Sequence record: PZ445437.1 | DNA from: a phage | DNA: 64,000 bases | Reading direction: 5' to 3' (one strand) | Part shown: positions 4,474 through 45,683 of the stretch, piece after piece | How positions within the stretch are numbered: the stretch's first letter is position 1 | Layout: each line of letters opens with the position of its first letter | Position numbers and translations under genes: made by a program | Notes under the pieces: model-generated | What the model was told of the DNA's origin: nothing | Databases searched by the model: none | What the model saw: the letters and a program-made list of their open reading frames with translations, nothing else

Positions 4474-4662
4474 AAGTTTTCCATGGTAAAGGCAGTTTAG
4501 TTTTCTTTACTGTTAGTTCAACATCAGGATTCTTTTCTCTCAATTTAAGACATTCCTCCCAAGCTCTGATTTCACTAGTGAATACACAAAATTGCCCATT
4601 ACTAGTACCGACTAAACCACTATTTACAATAATAATAGCCCAAGTTTCATGATGCCACGCCA

Positions 4663-6752: not shown

Positions 6753-7249
6753 AAAGTTTTAATAACCTCTATAATATCGTCTTGAGAAAGACCGTTAATT
6801 AAAATATGATGTTCAGCTGGAGATTTAGAAATTTTAAAGCATGCCGCAACATCTTCTGCCATATCTGATGCACTACGATTTGGATTACTAATTCCAAGAC
6901 GATGTTTTCCCGTCAAAGGATTAACGATGATATAACATTTGCAGCTATTGATATGAACATTAGGCTGAGTCTGATTAATGAATACTTCGCACTCATACTT
7001 AGCGAGTTGATTTTCTAAAAAGACTTTCATCTCCTCAACCGCATCAGGAAGCATATCACGGGCTTGCTCAAGACGACGATTTCGATATTCTTTAATGGTC
7101 GTTTTCCGCTTGACTTGCTTAGCTAAATCTTTCTTAAGATCGGTGATATATCCAACTCGACGATTTCCTTTGAATACAGAAATCCCATCTGTAGTATCAC
7201 CGTATGCTTCAACGACCATTTCAGTAGTAATAAGCTGTAAATCCATCAT
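6743..7249 (-). CDS. alc: Alc-like transcription terminator of host (cytosine-DNA) transcription, 168 aa
   Basis: Length and position (between pseT cluster and gene 63) as T4 alc; sequence recognised with moderate certainty. Confidence 0.7.
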   Translation of the reverse strand: MMDLQLITTEMVVEAYGDTTDGISVFKGNRRVGYITDLKKDLAKQVKRKTTIKEYRNRRLEQARDMLPDAVEEMKVFLENQLAKYECEVFINQTQPNVHINSCKCYIIVNPLTGKHRLGISNPNRSASDMAEDVAACFKISKSPAEHHILINGLSQDDIIEVIKTLCN

Positions 7250-7269
7250 AAAGTCCTCATGTTATGTCA

Positions 7270-7310
7270 GTAAAACTACTATAACACAACATGAGGGACT
7301 TGTAAACAGC
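7270..7310 (-). promoter_or_regulatory. T4-type early promoter (GTTTAC -35, TATAGT-like -10)
   Basis: Minus-sense GTTTACAAG...GTTATAGTAG upstream of alc start. Confidence 0.4.
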
Positions 7311-8898
<1,588 letters not shown>

Positions 8899-19476: not shown

Positions 19477-20130
19477 TCAATACTTGCAAGATTTCACAGT
19501 TTCAATGAAAACATTTTTAGCTTTCTGTGAATCAATATTTAAAATTTTTCTATAAGCCTTTAACTTTATAGAATAATTATTCCAGACTAAATTATCAGTC
19601 TGTTCATCATGTTTATCAATTATATTTAAAAATGAATCAAGCAAGATAAACGTCTCAAACGAAATTATGTTCGACTGAAGCAGTTTAAAAATATAACTTG
19701 ATTGAACTTTTGGATTATATTCAAAGATTTCTTTAAAAGCAGAAACTTCAACTTTTTTACTAAAATAATAAATGTTGCGAATATCTTCTTCAAACTTAAA
19801 TTTAATTTGCTTTAAGCGTCCGATATATTCACGATAAAACACAAGTGCATCAGCGTCAGAGATGTCACCAATCCAAGCATCTTGGTTAGCAACCAAATTG
19901 CTTATAAAGATTAAAGCAAGTTCCTTTAATTTATATTTTTCTGATAACTTCTGGAAAAAATACTTATCCCTTCGCTTTTGATAAGCAGCATCAGACACCC
20001 GCATGCACCAATTATACTTAATAACATCATACTTTCCATTCATATGCTGTTTTATCATTAAGTATAATTTATAAACTGATTTACCATCAATGTATCTTTC
20101 ACCACCAGCAGGCATGCGGAGTTTAATCAT
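19477..20130 (-). CDS. 59: helicase loader gp59 (217 aa)
   Basis: Length and N-terminal sequence as T4 gp59; position between 32 and 33. Confidence 0.85.
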   Translation of the reverse strand: MIKLRMPAGGERYIDGKSVYKLYLMIKQHMNGKYDVIKYNWCMRVSDAAYQKRRDKYFFQKLSEKYKLKELALIFISNLVANQDAWIGDISDADALVFYREYIGRLKQIKFKFEEDIRNIYYFSKKVEVSAFKEIFEYNPKVQSSYIFKLLQSNIISFETFILLDSFLNIIDKHDEQTDNLVWNNYSIKLKAYRKILNIDSQKAKNVFIETVKSCKY

Positions 20131-21700: not shown

Positions 21701-21708
21701 TATAAATA
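21701..21708 (+). promoter_or_regulatory. late promoter TATAAATA for gene 34
   Basis: Exact TATAAATA about 35 nt upstream of gp34 ATG, then GGAG SD. Confidence 0.6.
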
Positions 21709-21742: not shown

Positions 21743-24700
21743 ATGGCCGAGATTAAAAGAAAGTTCAGAGCAGAAGACGGTCTGGACGCAGGTGGCGATA
21801 AAATAATCAACGTAGCTTTAGCTGATCGTACCGTAGGAACTGACGGTGTTAACGTTGATTACTTAATTCAAGAAAACACAGTTCAACAATATGATCCAAC
21901 TCGTGGATATTTAAAAGATTTTGTAATCATTTATGATAACCGCTTTTGGGCTGCTATAAATGATATTCCAAAACCGGCAGGAGCTTTTAATAGCGGGCGC
22001 TGGAGAGCATTACGTACAGACGCAAACTGGATTACGGTTTCATCTGGTTCATATCAATTAAAATCCGGTGAAGCTATTTCGGTTAATACTGCAACTGGAA
22101 ATGACATCACGTTTACTTTACCATCTTCTCCAATTGATGGAGATACTATCGTTCTCCAAGATATTGGAGGAAAACCTGGAGTTAACCAAGTTTTAATTGT
22201 AGCTCCAGTACAAAGTATTGTAAACTTTAGAGGTGAACAAGTACGTTCAGTACTAATGACTCATCCAAAGTCACAGCTAGTTTTAATTTTTAGTAATCGT
22301 CTGTGGCAAATGTATGTCGCTGATTATAGTAGAGAAGCTGTAGTTGTAACACCAGCGAATACTTATCAAGCGCAATCTAATGATTTTATCGTGCGTAGAT
22401 TTACTTCTGCTGCACCAATTAATGTTAAACTTCCAAGATTTGCTAATCATGGCGATATTATTAATTTCGTCGATTTAGATAAACTGAATCCACTTTATCA
22501 TACAATTGTTACTACATACGATGAAACGACTTCAGTACAAGAAGTTGGAACTCATTCCATTGAAGGCCGTACATCGATTGACGGTTTCTTGATGTTTGAT
22601 GATAATGAGAAATTGTGGAGATTGTTTGACGGGGATAGTAAAGCACGTTTACGCATTATAACGACTAATTCTAATATTCGTCCAAACGAAGAAGTTATGG
22701 TATTTGGTGCGAATAACGGAACAACTCAGACAATTGAACTTCAGCTTCCTACTGATATTTCTGTTGGTGATACTGTTAAAATTTCCATGAATTACATGAG
22801 AAAAGGACAAACAGTTAAAATCAAAGCTGCAGGTGAAGATAAAATTGCTTCTTCAGTTCAATTGCTGCAATTCCCAAAACGCTCAGAATATCCACCTGAA
22901 GCTGAATGGGTTACAGTTCAAGAATTAGTTTTTAACGGTGAAACTAATTATGTTCCAGTTTTACAACTTGCTTATATAGAAGATTCTGATGGAAAATACT
23001 GGGTTGTACAGCAAAACGTTCCAACTGTAGAAAGAGTTGATTCTTTAAATGATTCTACTAGAGCAAGATTAGGCGTAATTGCTTTAGCTACACAAGCTCA
23101 AGCTAATGTCGATTTAGAAAATTCTCCACAAAAAGAATTAGCAATTACTCCAGAAACATTAGCTAACCGTACTGCTACAGAAACTCGTAGAGGTATCGCA
23201 AGAATAGCAACTACTGCTCAAGTGAATCAGAACACCACATTCTCTTTTGCTGATGATATTATCATCACTCCTAAAAAGCTGAATGAAAGAACTGCTACAG
23301 AAACTCGCAGAGGTGTCGCAGAAATTGCTACGCAGCAGGAAACTAATACAGGTACTGATGATACTACAATCATTACTCCTAAAAAGCTTCAAGCTCGTCA
23401 AGGTTCTGAATCATTATCTGGTATTGTAACTTTTGTATCTACTGCAGGTGCTACTCCAGCTTCTAGCCGTGAATTAAATGGTACGAATGTTTATAATAAA
23501 AACACTAATAATTTAGTTGTTTCACCTAAAGCTTTGGATCAGTATAAAGCTACTCCAACACAGCAAGGTGCAGTAATTTTAGCAGTTGAAAGTGAAGTAA
23601 TTGCTGGACAAAGCCAAGAAGGATGGGCAAATGCTGTTGTAACGCCAGAAACGTTACACAAAAAGACATCAACTGATGGAAGAATTGGTTTAATTGAAAT
23701 TGCTACACAAAGTGAAGTTAATACAGGAACTGATTATACTCGTGCAGTCACTCCTAAAACTTTAAATGACCGTAGAGCAACTGAAGGTTTAAGTGGTATA
23801 GCTGAAATTGCTACACAAGTTGAATTCGACGCAGGCGTCGACGATACTCGTATCTCTACACCATTAAAAATTAAAACCAGATTTAATAGTACTGATCGTA
23901 CTTCTGTTGTTGCTCTATCTGGATTGGTTGAATCAGGAACTCTCTGGGACCATTATACCCTTAATATTCTTGAAGCAAATGAGACACAGCGTGGCACACT
24001 TCGTGTAGCTACACAAGTTGAAGCTGCTGCAGGAACATTAGATAATGTTTTAATAACTCCTAAAAAGCTTTTAGGTACTAAATCTACCGAATCACAAGAA
24101 GGTGTTATTAAAGTTGCAACTCAGTCTGAAACTGTGACTGGAACATCAGCAAATACTGCTGTATCTCCAAAAAATTTAAAATGGATTGTGCAGAGTGAAC
24201 CTACCTGGGCAGCTACTACTGCGATAAGAGGTTTTGTTAAAACTTCATCTGGTTCAATTACATTCGTTGGTAATGATACAGTCGGTTCTACTCAGGATTT
24301 AGAGCTATATGAGAAAAATAGCTATGCAGTATCACCATATGAATTAAACCGTGTATTAGCAAATTATTTGCCGTTAAAAGCAAAAGCTGCTGATACAAAT
24401 TTATTGGATGGTCTAGATTCATCTCAGTTCATTCGTAGGGATATTGCACAGACGGTTAATGGTTCACTAACCTTAACCCAACAAACGAATCTGAGTGCCC
24501 CTCTTGTATCATCTAGTACTGCTGCGTTTGGTGGTTCAGTTTCGGCAAATAGTACATTAACTATTTCTAATACTGGAACGGCAACTCGTCTGATTTTTGA
24601 AAAAGGACCTCAAACTGGAACTAACCCAGCACAGACGATGACTATAAGAGTTTGGGGAAATCAGTTTGGTGGCGGATCAGATACAACACGTTCTACTGTA

Positions 24701-25612
24701 TTTGAAGTTGGTGATGAAACATCTAATCACTTTTATTCTCAACGTAATAAAGCTGGTAATATTACGTTTAGCATTAATGGTACTGTGATGCCAATAAATG
24801 TTAACGCTTCCGGTTCATTGAATGCGAATGGCGTAGCAACATTTGGTAGTTCAGTTACAGCCAATGGTGAATTCATTAGCAAGTCTGCAAATGCTTTCAG
24901 AGCAATAAACGGTGATTATGGATTCTTTATCAGGAATGATGGCGGCAGCACATATTTTATGCTTACTGCATCTGGTGATCAGACCGGTGGATTTAATGGA
25001 TTACGTCCATTATCAATTAATAATCAATCCGGTCAAGTCACAATTGGTGAAAGCTTAATCATTGCCAAAGGTGCTACTATAAATTCAGGCGGTTTAACTG
25101 TTAACTCGAGAATTCGTTCTCAGGGTACTAAAACATCTGATTTATATACCCGCGCACCAACAACTGATACTGTAGGATTCTGGTCAATTGATATTAACGA
25201 TTCAGCCACTTATAACCAGTTCCCGGGTTATTTTAAAATGGTTGAAAAAACTAATGAAGTGACTGGGCTTCCATACTTAGAACGTGGCGAAGAAGTTAAA
25301 TCTCCTGGTACACTGACTCAGTTTGGTAACACACTTGATTCGCTTTACCAAGATTGGATTACTTATCCAACGACGCCAGAAGCGCGTACCACTCGCTGGA
25401 CACGTACATGGCAGAAAACCAAAAACTCTTGGTCAAGTTTTGTTCAGGTATTTGACGGAGGTAACCCTCCTCAGCCGTCTGATATCGGTGCTTTACCATC
25501 TGATAATGCTACAATGGGGAATCTTACTATTCGTGATTTCTTACGAATTGGTAATGTTCGCATTATTCCTGACCCAGTGAATAAAACGGTTAAATTTGAA
25601 TGGGTTGAATAA
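21743..25612 (+). CDS. 34: long tail fibre proximal subunit gp34 (1289 aa)
   Basis: 1289 aa as T4 gp34; fibre-type internal repeats; first gene of the 34-38 block. Confidence 0.93.
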   Translation: MAEIKRKFRAEDGLDAGGDKIINVALADRTVGTDGVNVDYLIQENTVQQYDPTRGYLKDFVIIYDNRFWAAINDIPKPAGAFNSGRWRALRTDANWITVSSGSYQLKSGEAISVNTATGNDITFTLPSSPIDGDTIVLQDIGGKPGVNQVLIVAPVQSIVNFRGEQVRSVLMTHPKSQLVLIFSNRLWQMYVADYSREAVVVTPANTYQAQSNDFIVRRFTSAAPINVKLPRFANHGDIINFVDLDKLNPLYHTIVTTYDETTSVQEVGTHSIEGRTSIDGFLMFDDNEKLWRLFDGDSKARLRIITTNSNIRPNEEVMVFGANNGTTQTIELQLPTDISVGDTVKISMNYMRKGQTVKIKAAGEDKIASSVQLLQFPKRSEYPPEAEWVTVQELVFNGETNYVPVLQLAYIEDSDGKYWVVQQNVPTVERVDSLNDSTRARLGVIALATQAQANVDLENSPQKELAITPETLANRTATETRRGIARIATTAQVNQNTTFSFADDIIITPKKLNERTATETRRGVAEIATQQETNTGTDDTTIITPKKLQARQGSESLSGIVTFVSTAGATPASSRELNGTNVYNKNTNNLVVSPKALDQYKATPTQQGAVILAVESEVIAGQSQEGWANAVVTPETLHKKTSTDGRIGLIEIATQSEVNTGTDYTRAVTPKTLNDRRATEGLSGIAEIATQVEFDAGVDDTRISTPLKIKTRFNSTDRTSVVALSGLVESGTLWDHYTLNILEANETQRGTLRVATQVEAAAGTLDNVLITPKKLLGTKSTESQEGVIKVATQSETVTGTSANTAVSPKNLKWIVQSEPTWAATTAIRGFVKTSSGSITFVGNDTVGSTQDLELYEKNSYAVSPYELNRVLANYLPLKAKAADTNLLDGLDSSQFIRRDIAQTVNGSLTLTQQTNLSAPLVSSSTAAFGGSVSANSTLTISNTGTATRLIFEKGPQTGTNPAQTMTIRVWGNQFGGGSDTTRSTVFEVGDETSNHFYSQRNKAGNITFSINGTVMPINVNASGSLNANGVATFGSSVTANGEFISKSANAFRAINGDYGFFIRNDGGSTYFMLTASGDQTGGFNGLRPLSINNQSGQVTIGESLIIAKGATINSGGLTVNSRIRSQGTKTSDLYTRAPTTDTVGFWSIDINDSATYNQFPGYFKMVEKTNEVTGLPYLERGEEVKSPGTLTQFGNTLDSLYQDWITYPTTPEARTTRWTRTWQKTKNSWSSFVQVFDGGNPPQPSDIGALPSDNATMGNLTIRDFLRIGNVRIIPDPVNKTVKFEWVE
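23140..24140 (+). repeat. in-frame repeats within gp34
   Basis: Recurrent 20-aa units such as TATETRRGIARIATTAQ, TATETRRGVAEIATQQE, ATEGLSGIAEIATQVE, ETQRGTLRVATQVEAAAG. Confidence 0.5.
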
Positions 25613-25620
25613 GAGGTATT

Positions 25621-26736
25621 ATGGAAAAATTTATGGCAGAGTTTGGACAAGGATATGTCCAAACTCCATTTTTATCGGAAAGCAATTCAGTAAGATACAA
25701 AATAAGTATAGCGGGTTCTTGCCCGCTTTCTACTGCAGGACCATATGTTAAATTTCAGGATAATCCTGTAGGAAATCAAACATTTAGCGCAGGTCTTCAT
25801 TTAAGAGTTTTTGACCCTTTCACAGGAGCATTAGTTGATAGTAAGTCATATGCTTTTTCGACTTCAAATGATACTACATCAGCTGCTTTTGTTAGTTTCA
25901 TGAATTCTTTGACGAATAATCGAATTGTTGCTATATTAACTAACGGAAAGGTTAATTTTCCTCCTGAAGTAGTATCTTGGTTAAGAACCGCCGGAACGTC
26001 TGCCTTTCCATCTGATTCTATATTGTCAAGATTTGACGTATCATATGCTGCTTTTTATACTTCTTCTAAAAGAGCTATTGCATTAGAGCATGTTAAACTG
26101 AGTAATAGAAAAAGCACAGATGATTATCAAACTATTTTAGATGTTGTATTTGACAGTTTAGAAGACGTCGGAGCTACCGGATTTCCAAGAAGAACGTATG
26201 AAAGTGTTGAGCAATTTATGTCGGCAGTCGGTGGAACTAATAACGAAATTGCGAGATTGCCAACTTCAGCTGCTATAAGTAAATTATCTGATTATAATTT
26301 AATTCCTGGTGATGTTCTTTATCTTAAAGCACAGCTATATGCTGATGCTGATTTACTTGCTCTTGGAACTACGAATATATCCATTCGATTTTATAATGCA
26401 TCTAATGGATATATTTCCTCGACACAAGCTGAGTTTACTGGGCAAGCTGGGTCATGGGAATTAAAGGAAGATTATGTAGTTGTTCCAGAAAACGCAGTAG
26501 GATTTACGATATATGCACAAAGAACTGCGCAAGCTGGCCAAGGTGGCATGAGAAATTTAAGCTTTTCTGAAGTATCAAGAAACGGCGGTATTTCAAAACC
26601 TGCTGAATTTGGCGTCAATGGTATTCGTGTTAATTATATCTGTGAATCTGCTTCACCTCCGGATATAATGGTACTTCCTACGCAAGCATCGTCTAAAGCT
26701 GGTAAAGTGTTTGGACAAGAATTTAGAGAAGTTTAA
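25621..26736 (+). CDS. 35: long tail fibre hinge connector gp35 (371 aa)
   Basis: Length and position as T4 gp35. Confidence 0.9.
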   Translation: MEKFMAEFGQGYVQTPFLSESNSVRYKISIAGSCPLSTAGPYVKFQDNPVGNQTFSAGLHLRVFDPFTGALVDSKSYAFSTSNDTTSAAFVSFMNSLTNNRIVAILTNGKVNFPPEVVSWLRTAGTSAFPSDSILSRFDVSYAAFYTSSKRAIALEHVKLSNRKSTDDYQTILDVVFDSLEDVGATGFPRRTYESVEQFMSAVGGTNNEIARLPTSAAISKLSDYNLIPGDVLYLKAQLYADADLLALGTTNISIRFYNASNGYISSTQAEFTGQAGSWELKEDYVVVPENAVGFTIYAQRTAQAGQGGMRNLSFSEVSRNGGISKPAEFGVNGIRVNYICESASPPDIMVLPTQASSKAGKVFGQEFREV

Positions 26737-26741
26737 ATTGA

Positions 26742-26765
26742 GGGAGCCTTCGGGTTCCCTTTTTC
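26742..26765 (+). terminator. hairpin terminator after gene 35
   Basis: GGGAGCC-TTCG-GGTTCCC followed by TTTTTCTTT. Confidence 0.45.
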
Positions 26766-26767
26766 TT

Positions 26768-26775
26768 TATAAATA
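26768..26775 (+). promoter_or_regulatory. late promoter TATAAATA for gene 36
   Basis: Exact TATAAATA about 24 nt upstream of gp36 ATG. Confidence 0.55.
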
Positions 26776-26798: not shown

Positions 26799-27464
26799 AT
26801 GGCTGATTTAAAAGTAGGTTCAACAACTGGAGGCTCTGTCATTTGGCATCAAGGAAATTTTCCATTGAATCCGGCCGGTGACGATGTACTCTATAAATCA
26901 TTTAAAATATATTCAGAATATAATAAACCACAAGCTGCTGATAACGATTTCGTTTCTAAAGCTAATGGTGGTACTTATGCATCAAAGGTAACATTTAACG
27001 GCGGTGTTCAAATACCATATGCTATAAACAATACAAATCAATCTGGTATTTATCCTGGTAATGGAGATGCAGCTACTTTTGTTACAGCAAATATTGATAT
27101 TGTTTCATGGTATGGCGTAGGATTTAAATCATCACAAGGATCTGCCGGTAGAACTGTAGTAATTAATACACGCAATGGTGATATTAGCACAAAAGGTGTT
27201 GTGTCGGCAGCTGGTCAAGTAAGAAGTGATGCGACTTCTCCTATAGCAGCGAATGACCTTACTAGAAAGGACTATGTTGATGGAGCAATAAATACTGTTA
27301 CAGCAAATGCGAACTCTAGAGTGTTGCGTTCTGGCGACACTATGACAGGTAATTTAACCGCGCCAAACTTTTTCTCACAGAATCCTGCATCTCAACCTTC
27401 ACATGTTCCACGATTTGACCAAATCGTAATTAAGGATTCTGTTCAAGATTTCGGCTATTATTAA
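26799..27464 (+). CDS. 36: long tail fibre distal connector gp36 (221 aa)
   Basis: 221 aa as T4 gp36; position. Confidence 0.9.
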
Positions 27465-27472
27465 GAGGACTT

Positions 27473-30400
27473 ATGGCTACTTTAAAACAAATACAATTTA
27501 AAAGAAGCAAAACCGCAGGTGCACGTCCTGCTGCTTCAGTATTAGCCGAAGGTGAATTGGCTATAAACTTAAAAGATAGAACAATTTTTACTAAAGATGA
27601 TACAGGAAATATCATTGATCTAGGTATTGCTAAAGGCGGTCAAATTGATGGAAATGTAACTATTGATGGAACTTTACGCGTCAATGGACCAATAAACAAC
27701 TTTGGAAATTTTTCTACAAGTGGTACTATTACGGCAAGTAATATTGTTTCTGCTACAGTATTCAGATCAACATCTGGTTCATTTTATACAAGAGCAATAA
27801 ATGATACTGCAAATGCCCATCTTTGGTTTGAAAATACAAATGGCTCAGAACGTGGCGTTTTATATTCAAAACCGCAGTCTGAAAATGAAGGCGTAATTAC
27901 AATGCGTGTTCGTCAAGGAACCGCTGCGGGAGCTCAAAATTCAGAATTTCATTTCATTTCTACTGATGGCGGTATCTTCCAGGCACGCAAGCTAACTGCT
28001 TTAACTTCTATTAGTACACCAACTATTAGTGTTAATTTAATTAATCATGATTCTAAATCATTTGGACAATACGATTCACAGTCTTTGGTTAACTATGTTT
28101 ATCCTGGAACCGGTGAAACAAATGGTGTAAACTATCTTCGTAAAGTTCGCGCTAAGTCCGGTGGTACAATTTATCATGAAATTGTTACTGCCCAAACAGG
28201 CCTGGCTGATGAAGTTTCTTGGTGGACTGGTAATACACCATTATTTAAACTATACGGTATTCGTAACGACGGCAGAATGATTATCCGCAATAGCTTGGCC
28301 ATTGGTACTGTGACGCAAGGGTTTCCGTCAAGCGATTATGGCAATGTTGGGGCACTAGGAAATATATTTCTTGCTTTAGGTGATAATGGAACTGGTCTAG
28401 TTTATAGAAAAACCGGGGTATTTGATTTCGTTGGTTCTGGTTTATCTTTGGCATCTATTACTCCTGATAGTTTCCGTAGTACCCGTAAAGCGATTTTTGG
28501 TCGTTCCGAGGACCAAGGTACAACATGGATTATGCCTGGAACGAACGCTGCATTTTTATCAGTTCAAACACAAGCTGATACTAACACTGCTGGCGACGGC
28601 CAGACGCATATTGGCTATAACTCAGGCGGAAAAATGAACCACTATTTCCGTGGTAAAGGCAAAACTAATATTAATACCCAAGAAGGCATGGAAGTTAACC
28701 CGGGTATTCTTAAACTAGTGACTGGCTCTAATAATGTAATGTTTTATGCTGATGGCGGTATTACATCTGTTAAGCAGCTTTCAATATATAACGGCATATA
28801 TTTAGCAGCTAATAATTCTACTGCTGGGCTAACATTCGCTCCAACTACTACAGTTGATGGCACTAAGCAAATTTTGTGGGAAGGTGGTACTCGTGCTGGG
28901 CAGAATAAAAGCTATGTAACTGTTAAAGCATGGGGTAATTCATTTAACGCATCTGGCGATCGTTCCCGTGAAACGGTTTTTGAAGTATCAGATGGGCAAG
29001 GTTACCATTTTTATTCTCAGCGAGTTGCTCCCGGATCAGGTTCTACTGTCGGACCTATTCAATTTCGAGTTAATGGTGGTTTATTAACTTCAGGTAGTAT
29101 TGTTGCTTCTGGTTCTATTACAACTGAATCTTCTTTAAATGTTAATAATGGATTGTCTGTAAATGGACAAGCTAAATTTGGTGGAACAGCAAACGCATTG
29201 AGAATTTGGAACGCCGAATATGGCGCTATTTTCCGTCGTTCAGAAAGTAATTTTTATATTATTCCAACCAATCAAAATGAAGGCGAAAGTGGAGACATTC
29301 ACAGCTCTTTAAGACCTGTGAGAATAGGATTAAGCGATGGCATGGTTGGGTTAGGAAGAGATTCTTTTATAGTAGATCAAAATAATGCTTTAACTACTAT
29401 AAACAGTAACTCTCGCATTAATGCCAACTTTAGAATGCAATTGGGGAAGTCGACATATATTGATGCAGAATGCACTGATGCCGTTAGACCCGCAGGGGCT
29501 GGTTCATTTGCTTCGCAAAATAATGAAAACGTCCGTGCTCCGTTCTATATGAATATTAATCGCACAGATACAAGTACTTACGTTCCAATTGTTAAACAGA
29601 GATACGTACAAAATAATAGTTGCTATTCTATTGGTACTTTAATTAATGGCGGTAATTTTAGAGTTCATTATCATGAAGGTGGTGATGGCGGTTCTACTGG
29701 CGCGATTATAAAGGATTTAGGTTGGGAATTTAATAAAAATGGTGATTTTTACTCTCCTGGTAAATTAGGTGCTGGAAATATTCGTATCGGAACAGACGGT
29801 AATATCACGGGTGGTTCTGGTAATTTTGCTAACTTGAATACCACATTAAACCGTAAGGTCAATTCCGGATTTGTAACATACGGTGCAACTGCTGGATGGT
29901 ATAAATTCGCTACAGTAACGATGCCACAATCTACTTCTACTGTTTCATTTACTATAACTGGTGGTAAAGGATTTAATACCGGACTGTTTACACAGTGTGC
30001 TATAACAGAAATTGTTCTTCGTACTGGCAATGACCGCCCAGCAGGTTTAAACGCCGTGATGTATACCAGAACAGCTGCAGGTCTTACTGATATTGCTGTA
30101 GTTAATACCTCAGGAAATACATATGATATCTATGTTGAATCGGGTACTTATGCCAACCAATTAGCTTATACTTGGCATACAGTTGATAATGCTACCGTAG
30201 AAGTTATCGGCGCTTTTGGTCCTACTCAAAACCCAGTAGATTCTTTGCCGGTTGATTATGTTAAAGGTCAAGTAGCTAACATGCTTAACAACCTGGTAGA
30301 CACTGGTAAAGTAAAACGCTATGTAGCAGAGTCGGAAATTGCTATTAATAACCCAACTGGTATTCGTATTACGAGTAATTCTGATAGATCAGGTTCTAAT

Positions 30401-31411
30401 TCCGTTTTATTTCGAAATGACGGTGGAAGCTTCTATATTTTACTGACCGACAAAAACTCTTCAGACGGCGATAATAAAGCAACTGAAGGTGATTGGAATG
30501 GAAAACGACCATTTTCAATTGATATGACTGCTGGTACTGTTCGTCTTGGCGAAAATACTTCTTTTGGTAAAGATGTTACTATTGATGGAAGCATTAATTC
30601 ACGAGTTAAAGTTGTCGGACAGTGGAATGTTAGCTTTTCTGATATTTCAGATGTGACTCGTGACCGTTCTGCATTTTTAGTGAATACGGGTGGCATTTCC
30701 AAGACAAGTCAATCTTATTACCCGCTATTTTCTGGATACAGTTTTTTAACTGACGCAGGTTATCGACAATCGTTTGAATTTGGATGGTTAGGTGTTTCTG
30801 GTACTTGGCGTCAAGGCATTATTCGCATGCGTGGTGACAACCCATCGGGGCAACAGGCTCGTTGGACTTTTGATATGGACGGAACATTTTATGCTCCTAT
30901 ACTATCATGCGGATCTGCGAGAGCATTCGGTGTCAATGCATCAAATGGTCTCGGTGGAAACAGTATAACATTTGGTGATAGCGATACTGGTATTAAGCAA
31001 AATGGCGATGGATTATTAGACATATATGCGAACAGCGTACAAGTGTTCCGTTTCCAAAACGGTGATTTGTACTCATACAAAAATATAAATGCTCCAAACG
31101 TTTATATTCGTTCTGATATTCGTTTAAAATCCAACTTCAAACCTATCGAAAATGCACTTGATAAAGTTGAAAAACTTAACGGTGTCATTTACGATAAAGC
31201 TGAATACATCGGTGGAGAGGCAATTGAAACTGAAGCTGGTATTATAGCTCAAACGTTACAAGACGTTTTACCAGAAGCTGTCCGTGAAACAGAAGACAGT
31301 AAGGGTAATAAAATACTCACTGTTTCTTCTCAAGCCCAGATTGCTCTTCTAGTTGAAGCTGTGAAAACACTTTCTTCTCGTGTAAAAGAACTTGAATCTA
31401 AACTTATGTAA
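27473..31411 (+). CDS. 37: long tail fibre distal subunit gp37, T2-type (1312 aa) with C-terminal chaperone-like domain
   Basis: Conserved N-terminus [13 protein letters not shown]; longer than T4 gp37; C-terminal about 110 aa ([27 protein letters not shown]...) resembles intramolecular-chaperone/self-cleaving domains. Confidence 0.9.
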
Positions 31412-31432
31412 AGGAGGGCTTCGGCCCTCTAA
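31412..31432 (+). other. GC hairpin between genes 37 and 38
   Basis: GAGGGC-TTCG-GCCCTC immediately after gp37 stop; weak T-run. Confidence 0.35.
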
Positions 31433-31441
31433 GGATTTTTA

Positions 31442-32233
31442 ATGGCAATTGTAGGTGTTCCTGGCTGGATTGGTGAATCTGCCGTGAATGAAACTGGACA
31501 ACGCTGGATGGACGCTGCGATGAAAGCTGTTCGTGTTTCAGTTCCCGGTTGGATGAGTTCAATGGCTGGGCAATCTAAAGAAGTATATTATAGCGTTGGT
31601 GCTAGCAATTCTTACAATAAAGACACACTAATAAATTGGATAAAAGCCCAAGGCAGTACTCCTGTTGTTATTACTATTACAGGAAATATTGTTTCTCAAT
31701 CTACTGGTGTTCCATGCTTAGATTTTCCTAGCTCATTAACTAATGCATATGTTACCTTAAATATTAATAGTGGGGTTCATGTATTAGGTCGGGGAGGAAA
31801 TGGCGGAAGTAACTCTGCTGGCGGAGCAGGAGGAACTGCAATAAATAACGGAATTGGAACTCGTTTAAGAATAAACAATAATGGTATTATTGGTGGCGGC
31901 GGAGGTGGCGGCGCTGGTGCTAGATACCATCCTTTCCCTCAAATGGATATGATATTTGGTGGCGGCGGAGGTCGTCCATTTGGCGCAGCTGGCGCAGCAG
32001 GAGGTGGCGCAGCGGCAGCATCCGCTGGTACAATTTCTGCTCCTGGTAAAGGTACTGTTTCTGGGGTTCACTATGGAGGAAATGGTGGAGATTTGGGAGC
32101 TGCTGGCAAATCTTCATATATTAAAGGTGGTACTGGAGGAACTGTTCACTCGGGTGGTGCAGCAGGTAAAGCTGTTACTGGTAATGCTCCAACTTGGACT
32201 AAAGTTGGCACAATATATGGTTCAAGAGTATAA
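31442..32233 (+). CDS. 38: receptor-recognising adhesin gp38, T2-type (263 aa) with glycine-rich motifs
   Basis: N-terminus MAIVGVPGWIG; several poly-Gly tracts (GGGGGGGAG, FGGGGGRPFGAAGAAGGG) bracketing short variable segments. Confidence 0.85.
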   Translation: MAIVGVPGWIGESAVNETGQRWMDAAMKAVRVSVPGWMSSMAGQSKEVYYSVGASNSYNKDTLINWIKAQGSTPVVITITGNIVSQSTGVPCLDFPSSLTNAYVTLNINSGVHVLGRGGNGGSNSAGGAGGTAINNGIGTRLRINNNGIIGGGGGGGAGARYHPFPQMDMIFGGGGGRPFGAAGAAGGGAAAASAGTISAPGKGTVSGVHYGGNGGDLGAAGKSSYIKGGTGGTVHSGGAAGKAVTGNAPTWTKVGTIYGSRV

Positions 32234-32265
32234 TTTTTGAATAAATATCCTTAAAAGGAGGGTCT

Positions 32266-32922
32266 ATGGCAGCACCTAGAATATCATTTTCGCCCTCTGA
32301 TATTCTATTTGGTGTTCTAGATCGCTTGTTCAAAGATAACGCTACCGGGAAGGTTCTTGCCTCCCGGGTAGCTGTCGTAATTCTTTTATTTATGATGGCG
32401 ATTGTTTGGTATAGGGGAGATAGTTTCTTTGAGTACTATAAGCAATCAAAGTATGAAACATACAGTGAAATTATTGAAAAGGAAAGAAATGCACGCTTTG
32501 AATCTGTCGCCCTGGAACAACTCCAGATAGTTCATATATCATCTGAGGCAGACTTTAGTGCGGTGTATTCTTTCCGCCCTAAAAACTTAAACTATTTTGT
32601 TGATATTATAGCATATGAAGGAAGATTACCTTCAACAATAACTGAAAAATCACTTGGAGGATATCCTGTTGATAAAACTATGGATGAATATACAGTTCAT
32701 TTAAATGGACGTCATTATTATTCCAATTCAAAATTTGCTTTTTTACCAACTAAAAAGCCTACTCCCGAAATAAACTACATGTACAGTTGTCCATATTTCA
32801 ATTTGGATAATATCTATGCTGGAACAATAACCATGTACTGGTATAGAAATGATCATATAAGTAATGACCGCCTTGAATCAATATGTGCTCAGGCGGCCAG
32901 AATATTAGGAAGGGCTAAATAA
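32266..32922 (+). CDS. t: holin T (218 aa)
   Basis: 218 aa; single N-proximal TM segment then large periplasmic domain; follows gene 38 as in T4. Confidence 0.9.
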   Translation: MAAPRISFSPSDILFGVLDRLFKDNATGKVLASRVAVVILLFMMAIVWYRGDSFFEYYKQSKYETYSEIIEKERNARFESVALEQLQIVHISSEADFSAVYSFRPKNLNYFVDIIAYEGRLPSTITEKSLGGYPVDKTMDEYTVHLNGRHYYSNSKFAFLPTKKPTPEINYMYSCPYFNLDNIYAGTITMYWYRNDHISNDRLESICAQAARILGRAK

Positions 32923-43862: not shown

Positions 43863-45683
43863 CTACTGGCTCATCCATTCTTTACGAAGGTCAGCATTAT
43901 CTCCCATGAGCATTTCAAAAAGCTCTTTCCAGTTCTCAGGAAGTTTAACAACATCATATACTGGGTTTTGAATCATCTCACGATATTCAGATTTTTCCAA
44001 AGAGCCAAGTCCCTTAATATAACGGATGCTATGTTTAGGTAGAGCATCTTTGGCACTCTCATATTCAGCGACTGTATAAAACCATTCTTGTTTTTTACCG
44101 ACCTGAGCGATGATTACAGGAGTTTTGACAAAGCGAATTCGTCCTTGCTCAAACAATTCTGGCCAATTACTAAAAAACCCGAGCAGAGAAGGATAAATGC
44201 TTCCTAGACCATCATGGTCAGCATCAGTCATAATAGCAATATTATGATAATTCAAGTTTTCAGCTTTTTCACCAAGAACTAATCCAGTGATTGCGCAAAT
44301 ATCAAATAGTTCTTTATTTTTAAGCATATCAGCATATGACATACCCCAACTGTTGAGAACTTTACCACGCAATGGATAACCACCATGAAGTTCTTTATCA
44401 CGAACATCAATAAGATATCCGATAGCAGAATCACCCTCAGTCAAGAAAAGAGTAGTATCAGCATCTTTACCGCAAAGATTCGCTTTGATATGTTTATGAA
44501 CCTTAGCTTTAGAAGCCTTTTTAGCTGCTTTAGTTTCTGCTGCTTTTTCTGCCGCCAATTTACGAGCCAAAGCAGCTTCAATAATCGGCATTAGAATTGC
44601 TTCATTATTTAGAATAGCACGTGAAATCTTTTTAGCATCAAGTTGAATATGACTACGGATTTCACCAAATGGAGAAGTCAAACGCTCTTTAGTTTGAGAA
44701 TCAAATCGCATGTTTTTCATATCACGGACAAACATAACGATAGTCAAACATTCTTTGACACGTGCTTTAGTTACATCAATTTTGAACTTACGTTTGATTT
44801 GTGGAATAAGGTCTTCACAAATATCATCCATAACACAGTCAATGTGATGGCCACCATTCTTAGTATGAATGTTATTGACGTATGTTAATTGACGAAAACC
44901 ATCTGGTGAACGACCAACCGCAATAGAACAATTTTCTTGTTCTTGAACGATAGCATGTTCATCATACTGTCGTGCGTATTTCTTAAAATTACCCTGAACC
45001 TTTTTACCATTAAAGGTAAATTGAATATCAGGATAAACAACAGCAAGTGTCTGGAGACGATCCAGTGTAATGTCAAGATAAACTTGGGACAGCTCATTAG
45101 TTTCAAATGACATAAAATCTGGAATGAAAGTAACACGAGTTCCTTTCCATTTTCCAGGAATAGTTTCCCAGGATTTATTTTCCATGCCATTTGAACAACG
45201 AACTACAATATTATTTTGACCATCGCCAGTTTCACCGACAAACATCACAGAAAAAATGTTAGTTAAACTAGAACCAACACCATTCATACCACCGGTGACA
45301 CGTTCTTTATCATCACCAAAGTTACCACCCGCTTTTGGAATAGTCCAAGCAGCAACTGGACCAGGAATTTCTTCACCGGTAGGTGTTTTAACCATCGCTT
45401 GTGGAATACCACGACCGTTATCTTCAACTGTTACTTGATTGTTTTTGATAGTAACATTAATTTTATTTGCGAATTTAAACTTAGTACGAATACCTTCATC
45501 TACTGAGTTATCGATAATTTCATCAATAAGCTTAACAAGACCAGGTACATACTGAACACTTTCCCATTTACCAAACAGAAAGCGCTCATGCATTTCATTA
45601 GCAGAAGAGCCAATATACATGCCGCTACGCTTTTTGATATGTTCAATATCGCTCAGAATTTTAATTTCATTCTTAATCATCAC
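43863..45683 (-). CDS. 39: DNA topoisomerase II large (ATPase) subunit, unsplit gene 39 (606 aa)
   Basis: GyrB-like GHKL ATPase plus TOPRIM region in one continuous ORF; equals T4 gp39 plus gp60 fused. Confidence 0.92.
   Translation of the reverse strand: MMIKNEIKILSDIEHIKKRSGMYIGSSANEMHERFLFGKWESVQYVPGLVKLIDEIIDNSVDEGIRTKFKFANKINVTIKNNQVTVEDNGRGIPQAMVKTPTGEEIPGPVAAWTIPKAGGNFGDDKERVTGGMNGVGSSLTNIFSVMFVGETGDGQNNIVVRCSNGMENKSWETIPGKWKGTRVTFIPDFMSFETNELSQVYLDITLDRLQTLAVVYPDIQFTFNGKKVQGNFKKYARQYDEHAIVQEQENCSIAVGRSPDGFRQLTYVNNIHTKNGGHHIDCVMDDICEDLIPQIKRKFKIDVTKARVKECLTIVMFVRDMKNMRFDSQTKERLTSPFGEIRSHIQLDAKKISRAILNNEAILMPIIEAALARKLAAEKAAETKAAKKASKAKVHKHIKANLCGKDADTTLFLTEGDSAIGYLIDVRDKELHGGYPLRGKVLNSWGMSYADMLKNKELFDICAITGLVLGEKAENLNYHNIAIMTDADHDGLGSIYPSLLGFFSNWPELFEQGRIRFVKTPVIIAQVGKKQEWFYTVAEYESAKDALPKHSIRYIKGLGSLEKSEYREMIQNPVYDVVKLPENWKELFEMLMGDNADLRKEWMSQ

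Follow-up and report, generated by a model that had tools for sequence, protein, structure and literature searches.

Knowledge of the fibre-tip architecture of T-even phages goes back to the 1980s and that of a tip structure to 2018, while maps assigning receptors to adhesin alleles were published from 2011 to 2026, with the receptor of phage Bas43 published in 2021. In T4, the tip of the distal long tail fibre protein gp37 (a needle with HxH motifs) is itself the adhesin and gp38 is an unrelated chaperone, whereas in T2 and S16 gp38 is known from the literature as a component of the virion tip. The gp37 of S16 is cut between two serines, releasing a chaperone of 113 amino acids and exposing the face on which gp38 docks (PMC7917993), and T2 gp37 is likewise cited as proteolytically processed (Drexler 1986, as cited in PMC3157838). 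Here we describe the corresponding module, genes 37 and 38 at positions 27473–32233, in a stretch of 64,000 nucleotides of phage DNA (record PZ445437.1, hereafter the window; coordinates are on its plus strand unless marked otherwise).

We consider it very likely that this module is the receptor-recognising distal end of a long tail fibre of T2/T6/S16 design in a Tequatrovirus, specific for the protein Tsx and working by the steps proposed below, and none of the analyses run gave sequence evidence contradicting this. Gene order, protein families, conservation of the catalytic dyad, fold prediction, loop limits, identity to receptor-typed phages and the lack of a T4-type alternative were computed here, and the Tsx dependence of a phage with exactly these proteins, the processing of T2 gp37 and the geometry of the S16 tip were taken from the literature. 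Gene 37, for the distal subunit (27473–31411), encodes 1312 amino acids plus stop and corresponds over its full length to phrog_1699, "long tail fiber protein distal subunit". Gene 38, for the tip adhesin (31442–32233), encodes 263 amino acids plus stop and was identified by its open reading frame, Pfam and PDB matches, predicted fold and phrog_2056. A check of the open reading frames reproduced exactly the coordinates and lengths of the original prediction, and the T4 lengths that it used for comparison (1026 amino acids for gp37 and 183 for gp38) are correct. T2 gp37 has 1341 amino acids and T2 gp38 has 262, so a gp37 of 1312 amino acids is normal for the T2 type.

The product of gene 38 is a full-length adhesin of the T2/T6/S16 type. 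It covers the complete profiles of PF05268 (GP38, positions 1–218 of 218, E 7e-69, 232 bits for a cut-off of 25), PF21721 (Gp38_N, 1–40 of 40, E 7e-18, 64.7 bits) and phrog_2056, "tail fiber protein; host specificity" (1–267 of 267), and its sequence matches S16 gp38 (6F45_D, E 1.3e-48, 42% identity) and the receptor-binding domain of the PP01 adhesin (9V85, E 6.7e-32). An AlphaFold2 model based on 88 homologues reached a predicted local distance difference test score (pLDDT) of 93.3 and a predicted template modelling (TM) score of 0.87. When this model was compared with the PDB by Foldseek, it retrieved 6F45_D (E 1.9e-23, TM 0.77/0.81) and 9V85 (E 1.8e-19, TM 0.82), with no significant fold beyond these two. 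The predicted fold consists of an attachment domain, a beta-helix and a polyglycine-II sandwich, as in chain D of 6F45.

These searches also bear on a T4-like organization, in which gp38 would serve assembly only, as a chaperone not found in the virion, with receptor binding left to the tip of gp37. Gene 38 does occupy the map position of T4 gene 38, and several database records still carry its homologues as "tail assembly protein" or as "distal long tail fiber assembly catalyst". However, BLASTP found no similarity between gp38 and T4 gp38 (best E 8.6), so the chaperone-only gp38 that the original prediction had named as the alternative was not found; no tail-fibre-assembly Pfam family was matched by gp38 either, and its full-length matches are to the adhesin family and to the S16 and PP01 structures. 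Virions of T6 gene 38 amber mutants, moreover, look normal but cannot adsorb (PMC3157838). The needle is missing as well. The first 844 amino acids of gp37, the shaft (27473–30004), are colinear with amino acids 1–848 of T4 gp37 at 69% identity, but the BLASTP alignment ends there and no similarity was found beyond. The remainder of the mature protein, a T2-type distal part (amino acids 845–1213, 30005–31111), has no T4 gp37 counterpart and no HxH needle motifs (over the last 220 residues of the mature protein none, compared with seven in T4), and a PDB search with gp37 gave no match to the T4 tip structure (nothing like 2XGF). Neither the needle adhesin nor the chaperone of T4 is thus present, the likeness to that phage being one of map position and shaft, and we give a T4-like organization almost no credence.

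Three domains can be followed along gp38. The attachment domain (Gp38_N, PF21721; amino acids 1–45, 31442–31576) carries three conserved tryptophans, W9, W22 and W37, which are invariant in the six phages compared and all align to tryptophans of S16; among the 88 homologues, conservation is 90% or more at W9 and W22. The role of such tryptophan prongs in attachment has been described for S16 (PMC7917993). The N-terminal part of the beta-helix (amino acids 46–115, 31577–31786; strands at 48–115, pLDDT >90) links the attachment domain with the specificity domain that follows (amino acids 116–247, 31787–32182), in which five glycine-rich motifs (GRMs) are interleaved with four hypervariable segments (HVSs), a layout and nomenclature that follow the Trojet/Drexler description (PMC3157838).

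The limits of these segments were set by column entropy and glycine conservation in the alignment of the 88 homologues, in which the glycine-rich blocks are nearly invariant and the segments between them have the highest entropy and the most indels. The poly-glycine tracts and intervening variable segments of the original prediction are therefore borne out, and alignment did delimit them, as had been proposed: GRM1 (amino acids 116–122), HVS1 (123–150, 31808–31891, with a hot spot at 123–129, SNSAGGA), GRM2 (151–159), HVS2 (160–172, ARYHPFPQMDMIF, 31919–31957, with a PFPQM core in common with the Tsx-binding T6 adhesin), GRM3 (173–184), HVS3 (185–211, 31994–32074), GRM4 (212–222), HVS4 (223–237, KSSYIKGGTGGTVHS, 32108–32152, where K228 is the only loop residue differing from phage AV114, which has Q) and GRM5 (238–247), followed by a conserved C-terminal strand (248–263). 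Glycine makes up 36% of amino acids 116–247, and the GGN codons of the glycine-rich motifs account for the rise in G+C (0.42–0.44) and GC skew (+0.21 to +0.24) over gene 38 (31500–32500), compared with a G+C of about 0.35 elsewhere. Long out-of-frame open reading frames inside gene 38 (for instance 31956–32240, and 31865–32071 and 31920–32117 on the minus strand) were weighed as embedded genes and rejected as unsupported by-products to be expected of this GGN-rich sequence.

Judging from its sequence, gp37 very likely removes its folding helper by cleaving itself. A predicted intramolecular chaperone (Peptidase_S74) occupies amino acids 1214–1312 (31112–31408) according to Pfam, PDB alignments and a conserved catalytic dyad. 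PF13884 matched amino acids 1214–1271 over its full 58-position profile (E 4.9e-16, 59.2 bits for a cut-off of 22), well above what chance would give, the last approximately 155 amino acids of gp37 align to the C-terminus of S16 gp37 (6F45_A), and the chaperone part aligns also to the autoprocessing domain of MYRF (7DC3, ADLRAK). In the S16 alignment NVYIR/SDIRLK of gp37 stands opposite the cleavage site DLNVS/SDRRIKK (the slash marking the cut). All six phages compared, T2, T6, AV114, Kelasse and Kha5h among them, have S1214, D1215 and K1219, and the predicted reaction is an autocleavage between R1213 and S1214 with S1214 as nucleophile and K1219 as general base. The piece released would be 99 amino acids long and is identical to the T2 chaperone at 97 of 99 positions, so that the chaperone-like C-terminus of the original prediction stands, with an intact Ser/Lys dyad, but at 99 rather than about 110 amino acids. 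The NVYIR strand just upstream (amino acids 1209–1213, 31097–31111) is predicted to become the new C-terminus and the docking face for gp38, and the approximately 65 amino acids preceding the cut site are nearly identical in T2, AV114 and Kha5h.

Endosialidase-type chaperones (Peptidase_S74; MYRF ICA, 7DC3) resemble this domain in the full match to the hidden Markov model, in the Ser and Lys five residues apart and in lying at the very C-terminal end of a trimeric fibre; they differ in that the predicted cut would here, as in S16, also create the docking site for a separate adhesin and not merely release a mature spike. The segment could alternatively be a degenerate chaperone that does not cleave and is kept in the mature fibre, with gp38 binding elsewhere. 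A cleavage is invisible in sequence, and processing in the phage of the window is read by homology, which leaves some room for such retention. Still, Ser and Lys lie at the canonical i/i+5 spacing and are unchanged in T2, T6, AV114, Kha5h and Kelasse, the domain is 98% identical to that of T2, whose gp37 is processed according to the citation given above, and the homologous cut in S16 makes the docking face of gp38 (PMC7917993). We see only a very slim chance of retention, and we infer that both cleavage and capping take place in the phage of the window.

An exact-sequence look-up identified the two proteins as QXV84822.1 (gp37) and QXV84823.1 (gp38) of Escherichia phage TadeuszReichstein, where they are labelled "long tail fiber distal subunit" and "adhesin tip for distal long tail fiber"; both are identical and no difference is detectable, so the window almost certainly comes from this phage. 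In the BASEL S5 Table this phage is Bas43 (MZ501106, 166,115 bp, closest relative RB18), with Tsx as primary receptor and the deep core of lipopolysaccharide (LPS) as terminal receptor. The same gp38 (100% identity) is found as the adhesin of Kelasse (QXN69785.1), and homologues with 97–99.6% identity occur in Kha5h, Geo, JLBYU24, RB18, Shfl2, slur07 and the Mosigvirus phages AV109, AV114 and AV115. Neither AV114 nor AV115 can infect a host from which tsx is deleted (PMC10844046). Their gp38 is 98.5% identical to that of the window. Three substitutions (V48I, Y49H and V52I) fall in the beta-helix part, and a fourth, K228Q in HVS4, is the single exception among the 83 residues of HVS1–4, 82 of which are identical in AV114. 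Judged by these sequence identities, the receptor for this gp37 and gp38 is Tsx, not the FadL/OmpF of T2.

The comparison of HVS2, HVS3 and HVS4 with receptor-typed adhesins goes in the same direction. T6, which uses Tsx, shares 7/13, 10/27 and 3/15 residues in these three loops, including the PFPQM core of HVS2; the OmpA binders PaulHMueller and M1 share 2/13, 12/27 and 3/15, and 0/13, 8/27 and 2/15, respectively, and T2 (FadL/OmpF) shares 1/13, 4/27 and 1/15. The label "T2-type" of the original prediction therefore holds for the architecture (PF05268, PF21721 and 6F45_D) and fails for the specificity. T6 gp38 belongs to the same family, binds the same receptor and has both PFPQM (HVS2) and GTIS-PG-G (HVS3) in common with the window adhesin, although it is only 56% identical overall, with 30 of 45 residues identical in the N-terminal domain, and the two gp37 proteins are 30% identical. 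The two phages thus carry different Tsx-binding allele groups, that of the window being the group of AV114, AV115, Bas43, Kha5h, slur07 and RB18-like phages. The PFPQM motif was found in 6 of the 88 homologues sampled. Tentatively, the Bas43/AV114-type adhesin might be a second structural solution to Tsx binding, unlike the classical T6 set in most loop residues, with PFPQM as the minimal determinant and HVS4, including K228/Q228, tuning it to Tsx variants or strains, an idea that we think possible but would sooner doubt than accept.

A T2-type adhesin directed at another receptor, either OmpA or FadL/OmpF, is the remaining alternative. The gp38 of Kha5h, 99.2% identical to that of the window, is annotated as K3-like, the "type 1" adhesins that bind OmpA are phylogenetically near the Tsx binders, the family changes receptor by one or a few HVS substitutions, and K228 in HVS4 is unlike the residue of the Tsx-typed AV114. 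Taken from AV114 alone, the transfer of specificity would be uncertain because of K228Q and these single-substitution switches, but most of this doubt is removed by the exact sequence match to Bas43. Identical gp37 and gp38 belong to a phage listed as Tsx-dependent, AV114 and AV115 are Tsx-dependent too, and HVS2 is clearly closer to T6 than to PaulHMueller, M1 or T2. A receptor other than Tsx thus appears very unlikely. The Kha5h record (KT184312) labels its gp38 (6970–7761) "similar to bacteriophage K3", an OmpA binder, and several records name the homologous adhesin as a tail assembly protein or an "assembly catalyst"; such labels mislead receptor prediction. An "attP" annotated within gene 37 of the same Kha5h record (4489–4501) was rejected, since the phage is virulent and the match only 13 bp long.

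Several points weigh against reading the module as a Tsx-specific cleaved and capped fibre tip. Both the cleavage of gp37 and the presence of gp38 in the virion are deduced from homologues for the phage of the window. The typing of Tsx is genetic (tsx mutants lose plating), which does not by itself prove that the loops of gp38 contact Tsx directly, as we suppose they would, and the PDB search with the gp38 sequence found no solved gp38–Tsx structure. Single HVS substitutions can switch the receptor (RB51/RB68 Q206L, 2026 preprint; PST compared with T6, PMC3157838). Finally, the link to TadeuszReichstein is made by exact protein matches and not by whole-genome identity.

With Tsx as receptor and a processed gp37, the module would work as follows. 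Genes 36, 37 and 38 would be transcribed late, and gp37, assisted by its own chaperone (amino acids 1214–1312), would form a long trimeric fibre of beta structure. Once folding is complete, Ser1214, activated by Lys1219, would cut between R1213 and S1214 and the chaperone of 99 amino acids would leave. The trimeric tip exposed in this way, formed by the NVYIR strands, would be capped by one gp38, whose W9, W22 and W37 would plug into it. The C-terminal polyglycine-II sandwich of gp38, built from the five glycine-rich motifs, would then display the four hypervariable loops to an outer-membrane protein of the host, which for this allele would be the nucleoside channel Tsx. Binding of the long fibres would then trigger that of the short fibres to the LPS core, and contraction of the tail.

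Among the described systems, T2 is the experimental reference for both gp37 processing and the gp38 adhesin, and it resembles the window in architecture and gene order. The gp37 proteins are 68% identical overall, with 159 of the last 170 amino acids identical, and the N-terminal domain of gp38 is identical at 43 of 45 positions, whereas the specificity loops are unrelated and the receptors differ (FadL/OmpF in T2, Tsx here). S16 (6F45) shares the S/SDRRIK-type cleavage motif, the attachment domain with three tryptophans, the beta-helix and the polyglycine-II sandwich. It differs in binding OmpC, in a longer chaperone (113 amino acids, compared with 99 here), in the residue before the cut (Ser in S16, Arg here) and in a gp37 shaft that is much shorter and otherwise dissimilar. 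AV114 and AV115 belong to another genus, Mosigvirus, and their gp37 is only 59% identical to that of the window. They carry a nearly identical gp38 on this different gp37, and the adhesin therefore travels between fibre backbones. In the OmpA-typed Krischvirus AV108 (OR352938) the slot between gene 37 and the holin gene contains only an open reading frame of 240 nucleotides (19887–20126) and no adhesin gene, which agrees with the location of the Krischvirus gp38 reported some 55 kb away; the AV108 adhesin was therefore left out of the loop comparison.

The module is a mosaic at the DNA level. Its best full-length match in the annotated phage collection was Kha5h, at 92.8%, and no match above 95.5% was present in that collection; the exact gp37 of 1312 amino acids is a singleton cluster in a collection of 15 billion proteins. 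The segment 28073–29200 of gene 37 (gp37 amino acids ~200–575) is 96% identical to ADUt and 41–86% identical to Kelasse and Kha5h, values obtained in ungapped windows of 150 nucleotides, the lowest of which reflect small indels. The flanking parts of gene 37 and gene 38 are mostly 91–100% identical to Kelasse DNA, with gene 38 essentially identical. Gene 37 is, by this sequence pattern, a recombinant, ADUt-like in 28073–29200 and Kelasse/Kha5h-like in the rest. T2, AV114 and the phage of the window are near-identical in the ~65 amino acids that end mature gp37, in the chaperone and in amino acids 1–45 of gp38, whereas the gp37 shaft upstream and the HVS region downstream have diverged. Conserved junctions framing exchangeable specificity cassettes, as seen here, are well known (PMC3157838; a 2026 preprint).

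Within the shaft, the first ~60 amino acids of gp37 are near-invariant in T2, T6, AV114 and Kha5h and are, from what is known of the T4 fibre, presumably the end that joins gp36. Amino acids 451–707 (28823–29593) match the Pfam family Gp34_trimer (PDB 4UXE/5NXF) and form a domain homologous to the trimerisation region at the C-terminus of gp34. A direct comparison within the window gave 32% identity between gp37 amino acids 466–671 (28868–29485) and gp34 amino acids 949–1144 (gene 34, 24587–25174), and a second, short echo of the same gp34 stretch was found at gp37 amino acids 979–1049 (30407–30619). The likeness reflects an old internal duplication common to both half-fibres.

Genes 37 and 38 are adjacent late genes of the Tequatrovirus tail-fibre operon 34-35-36-37-38-t. 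Upstream of them lie the open reading frames of gene 34 (21743–25612, 1289 amino acids), gene 35 (25621–26736, 371 amino acids) and gene 36 (26799–27464, 221 amino acids) and downstream that of the holin gene t (32266–32922, 218 amino acids), with the identities of gp34, gp36 and the holin given by Pfam. Outside the fibre block all open reading frames of at least 120 amino acids in the window are on the minus strand (asiA, arn, motA, gene 52, rIIB/A and gene 39, among other early and middle genes), and the DNA is 96–97% identical to many Tequatrovirus genomes. Since the other large open reading frames are these minus-strand genes, the fibre block is the sole receptor-binding locus of the window, and the proposal that it determines host specificity there held up.

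A T4-type late promoter box, TATAAATA, lies directly upstream of gene 36 (26768–26775), recognised by its position and the known T4 late-promoter consensus, and is probably the start of a late 36-37-38(-t) transcript. Near the locus two copies are found on the plus strand, at 21701 (before gene 34) and 26768 (before gene 36), but the box is not enriched across the window (6 found, 9.7 expected) and the assignment is therefore positional evidence. Between genes 37 and 38 there is a GC-rich hairpin with a UUCG tetraloop (GGAGGGC-UUCG-GCCCUCU, 31413–31430, −13.4 kcal/mol) that overlaps a GGAGG and is followed by an AAGGA Shine-Dalgarno sequence (31431–31435), 6 nucleotides upstream of the gene 38 ATG. 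A second GC-rich hairpin with a UUCG tetraloop occupies the gap between genes 35 and 36 (26740–26761). Such hairpins could stabilise mRNA, terminate transcription in part or couple translation. Compared with shuffled sequences, the hairpin between genes 37 and 38 is only slightly more stable (z −1.5), and promoter and terminator scans of the locus did no better than shuffles, so we make no regulatory claim for the locus.

Some other features of the window were noted in passing. The top match of a sigma-70-like scan over 13 kb, TTGGCA-18-TATAAT (11/12, 32205–32234), falls in the last codons of gene 38, about 30 nucleotides upstream of t, and may be due to chance. Amino acids 58–127 of gp35 match the Pfam family ILEI (interleukin-like EMT inducer / FAM3-like; E 2.4e-8, 34.8 bits for a cut-off of 27), which is unexpected in a phage hinge protein. 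On the minus strand, a single open reading frame of 605 amino acids (43863–45683) with the Pfam domains GyrB, HATPase_c and TOPRIM_C looks like an unsplit large subunit of topoisomerase II (gene 39), which we take to be the arrangement of T2 and T6, T4 having a split 39 plus 60.

Overall, publications on the same phage already contain both proteins, their labelling as fibre and adhesin tip, and the receptor, and what has been obtained here is a correct annotation and not a discovery. Its value lies in what the block does, setting which E. coli surface protein the phage needs, and thereby offering a handle for predicting or re-engineering its host range.

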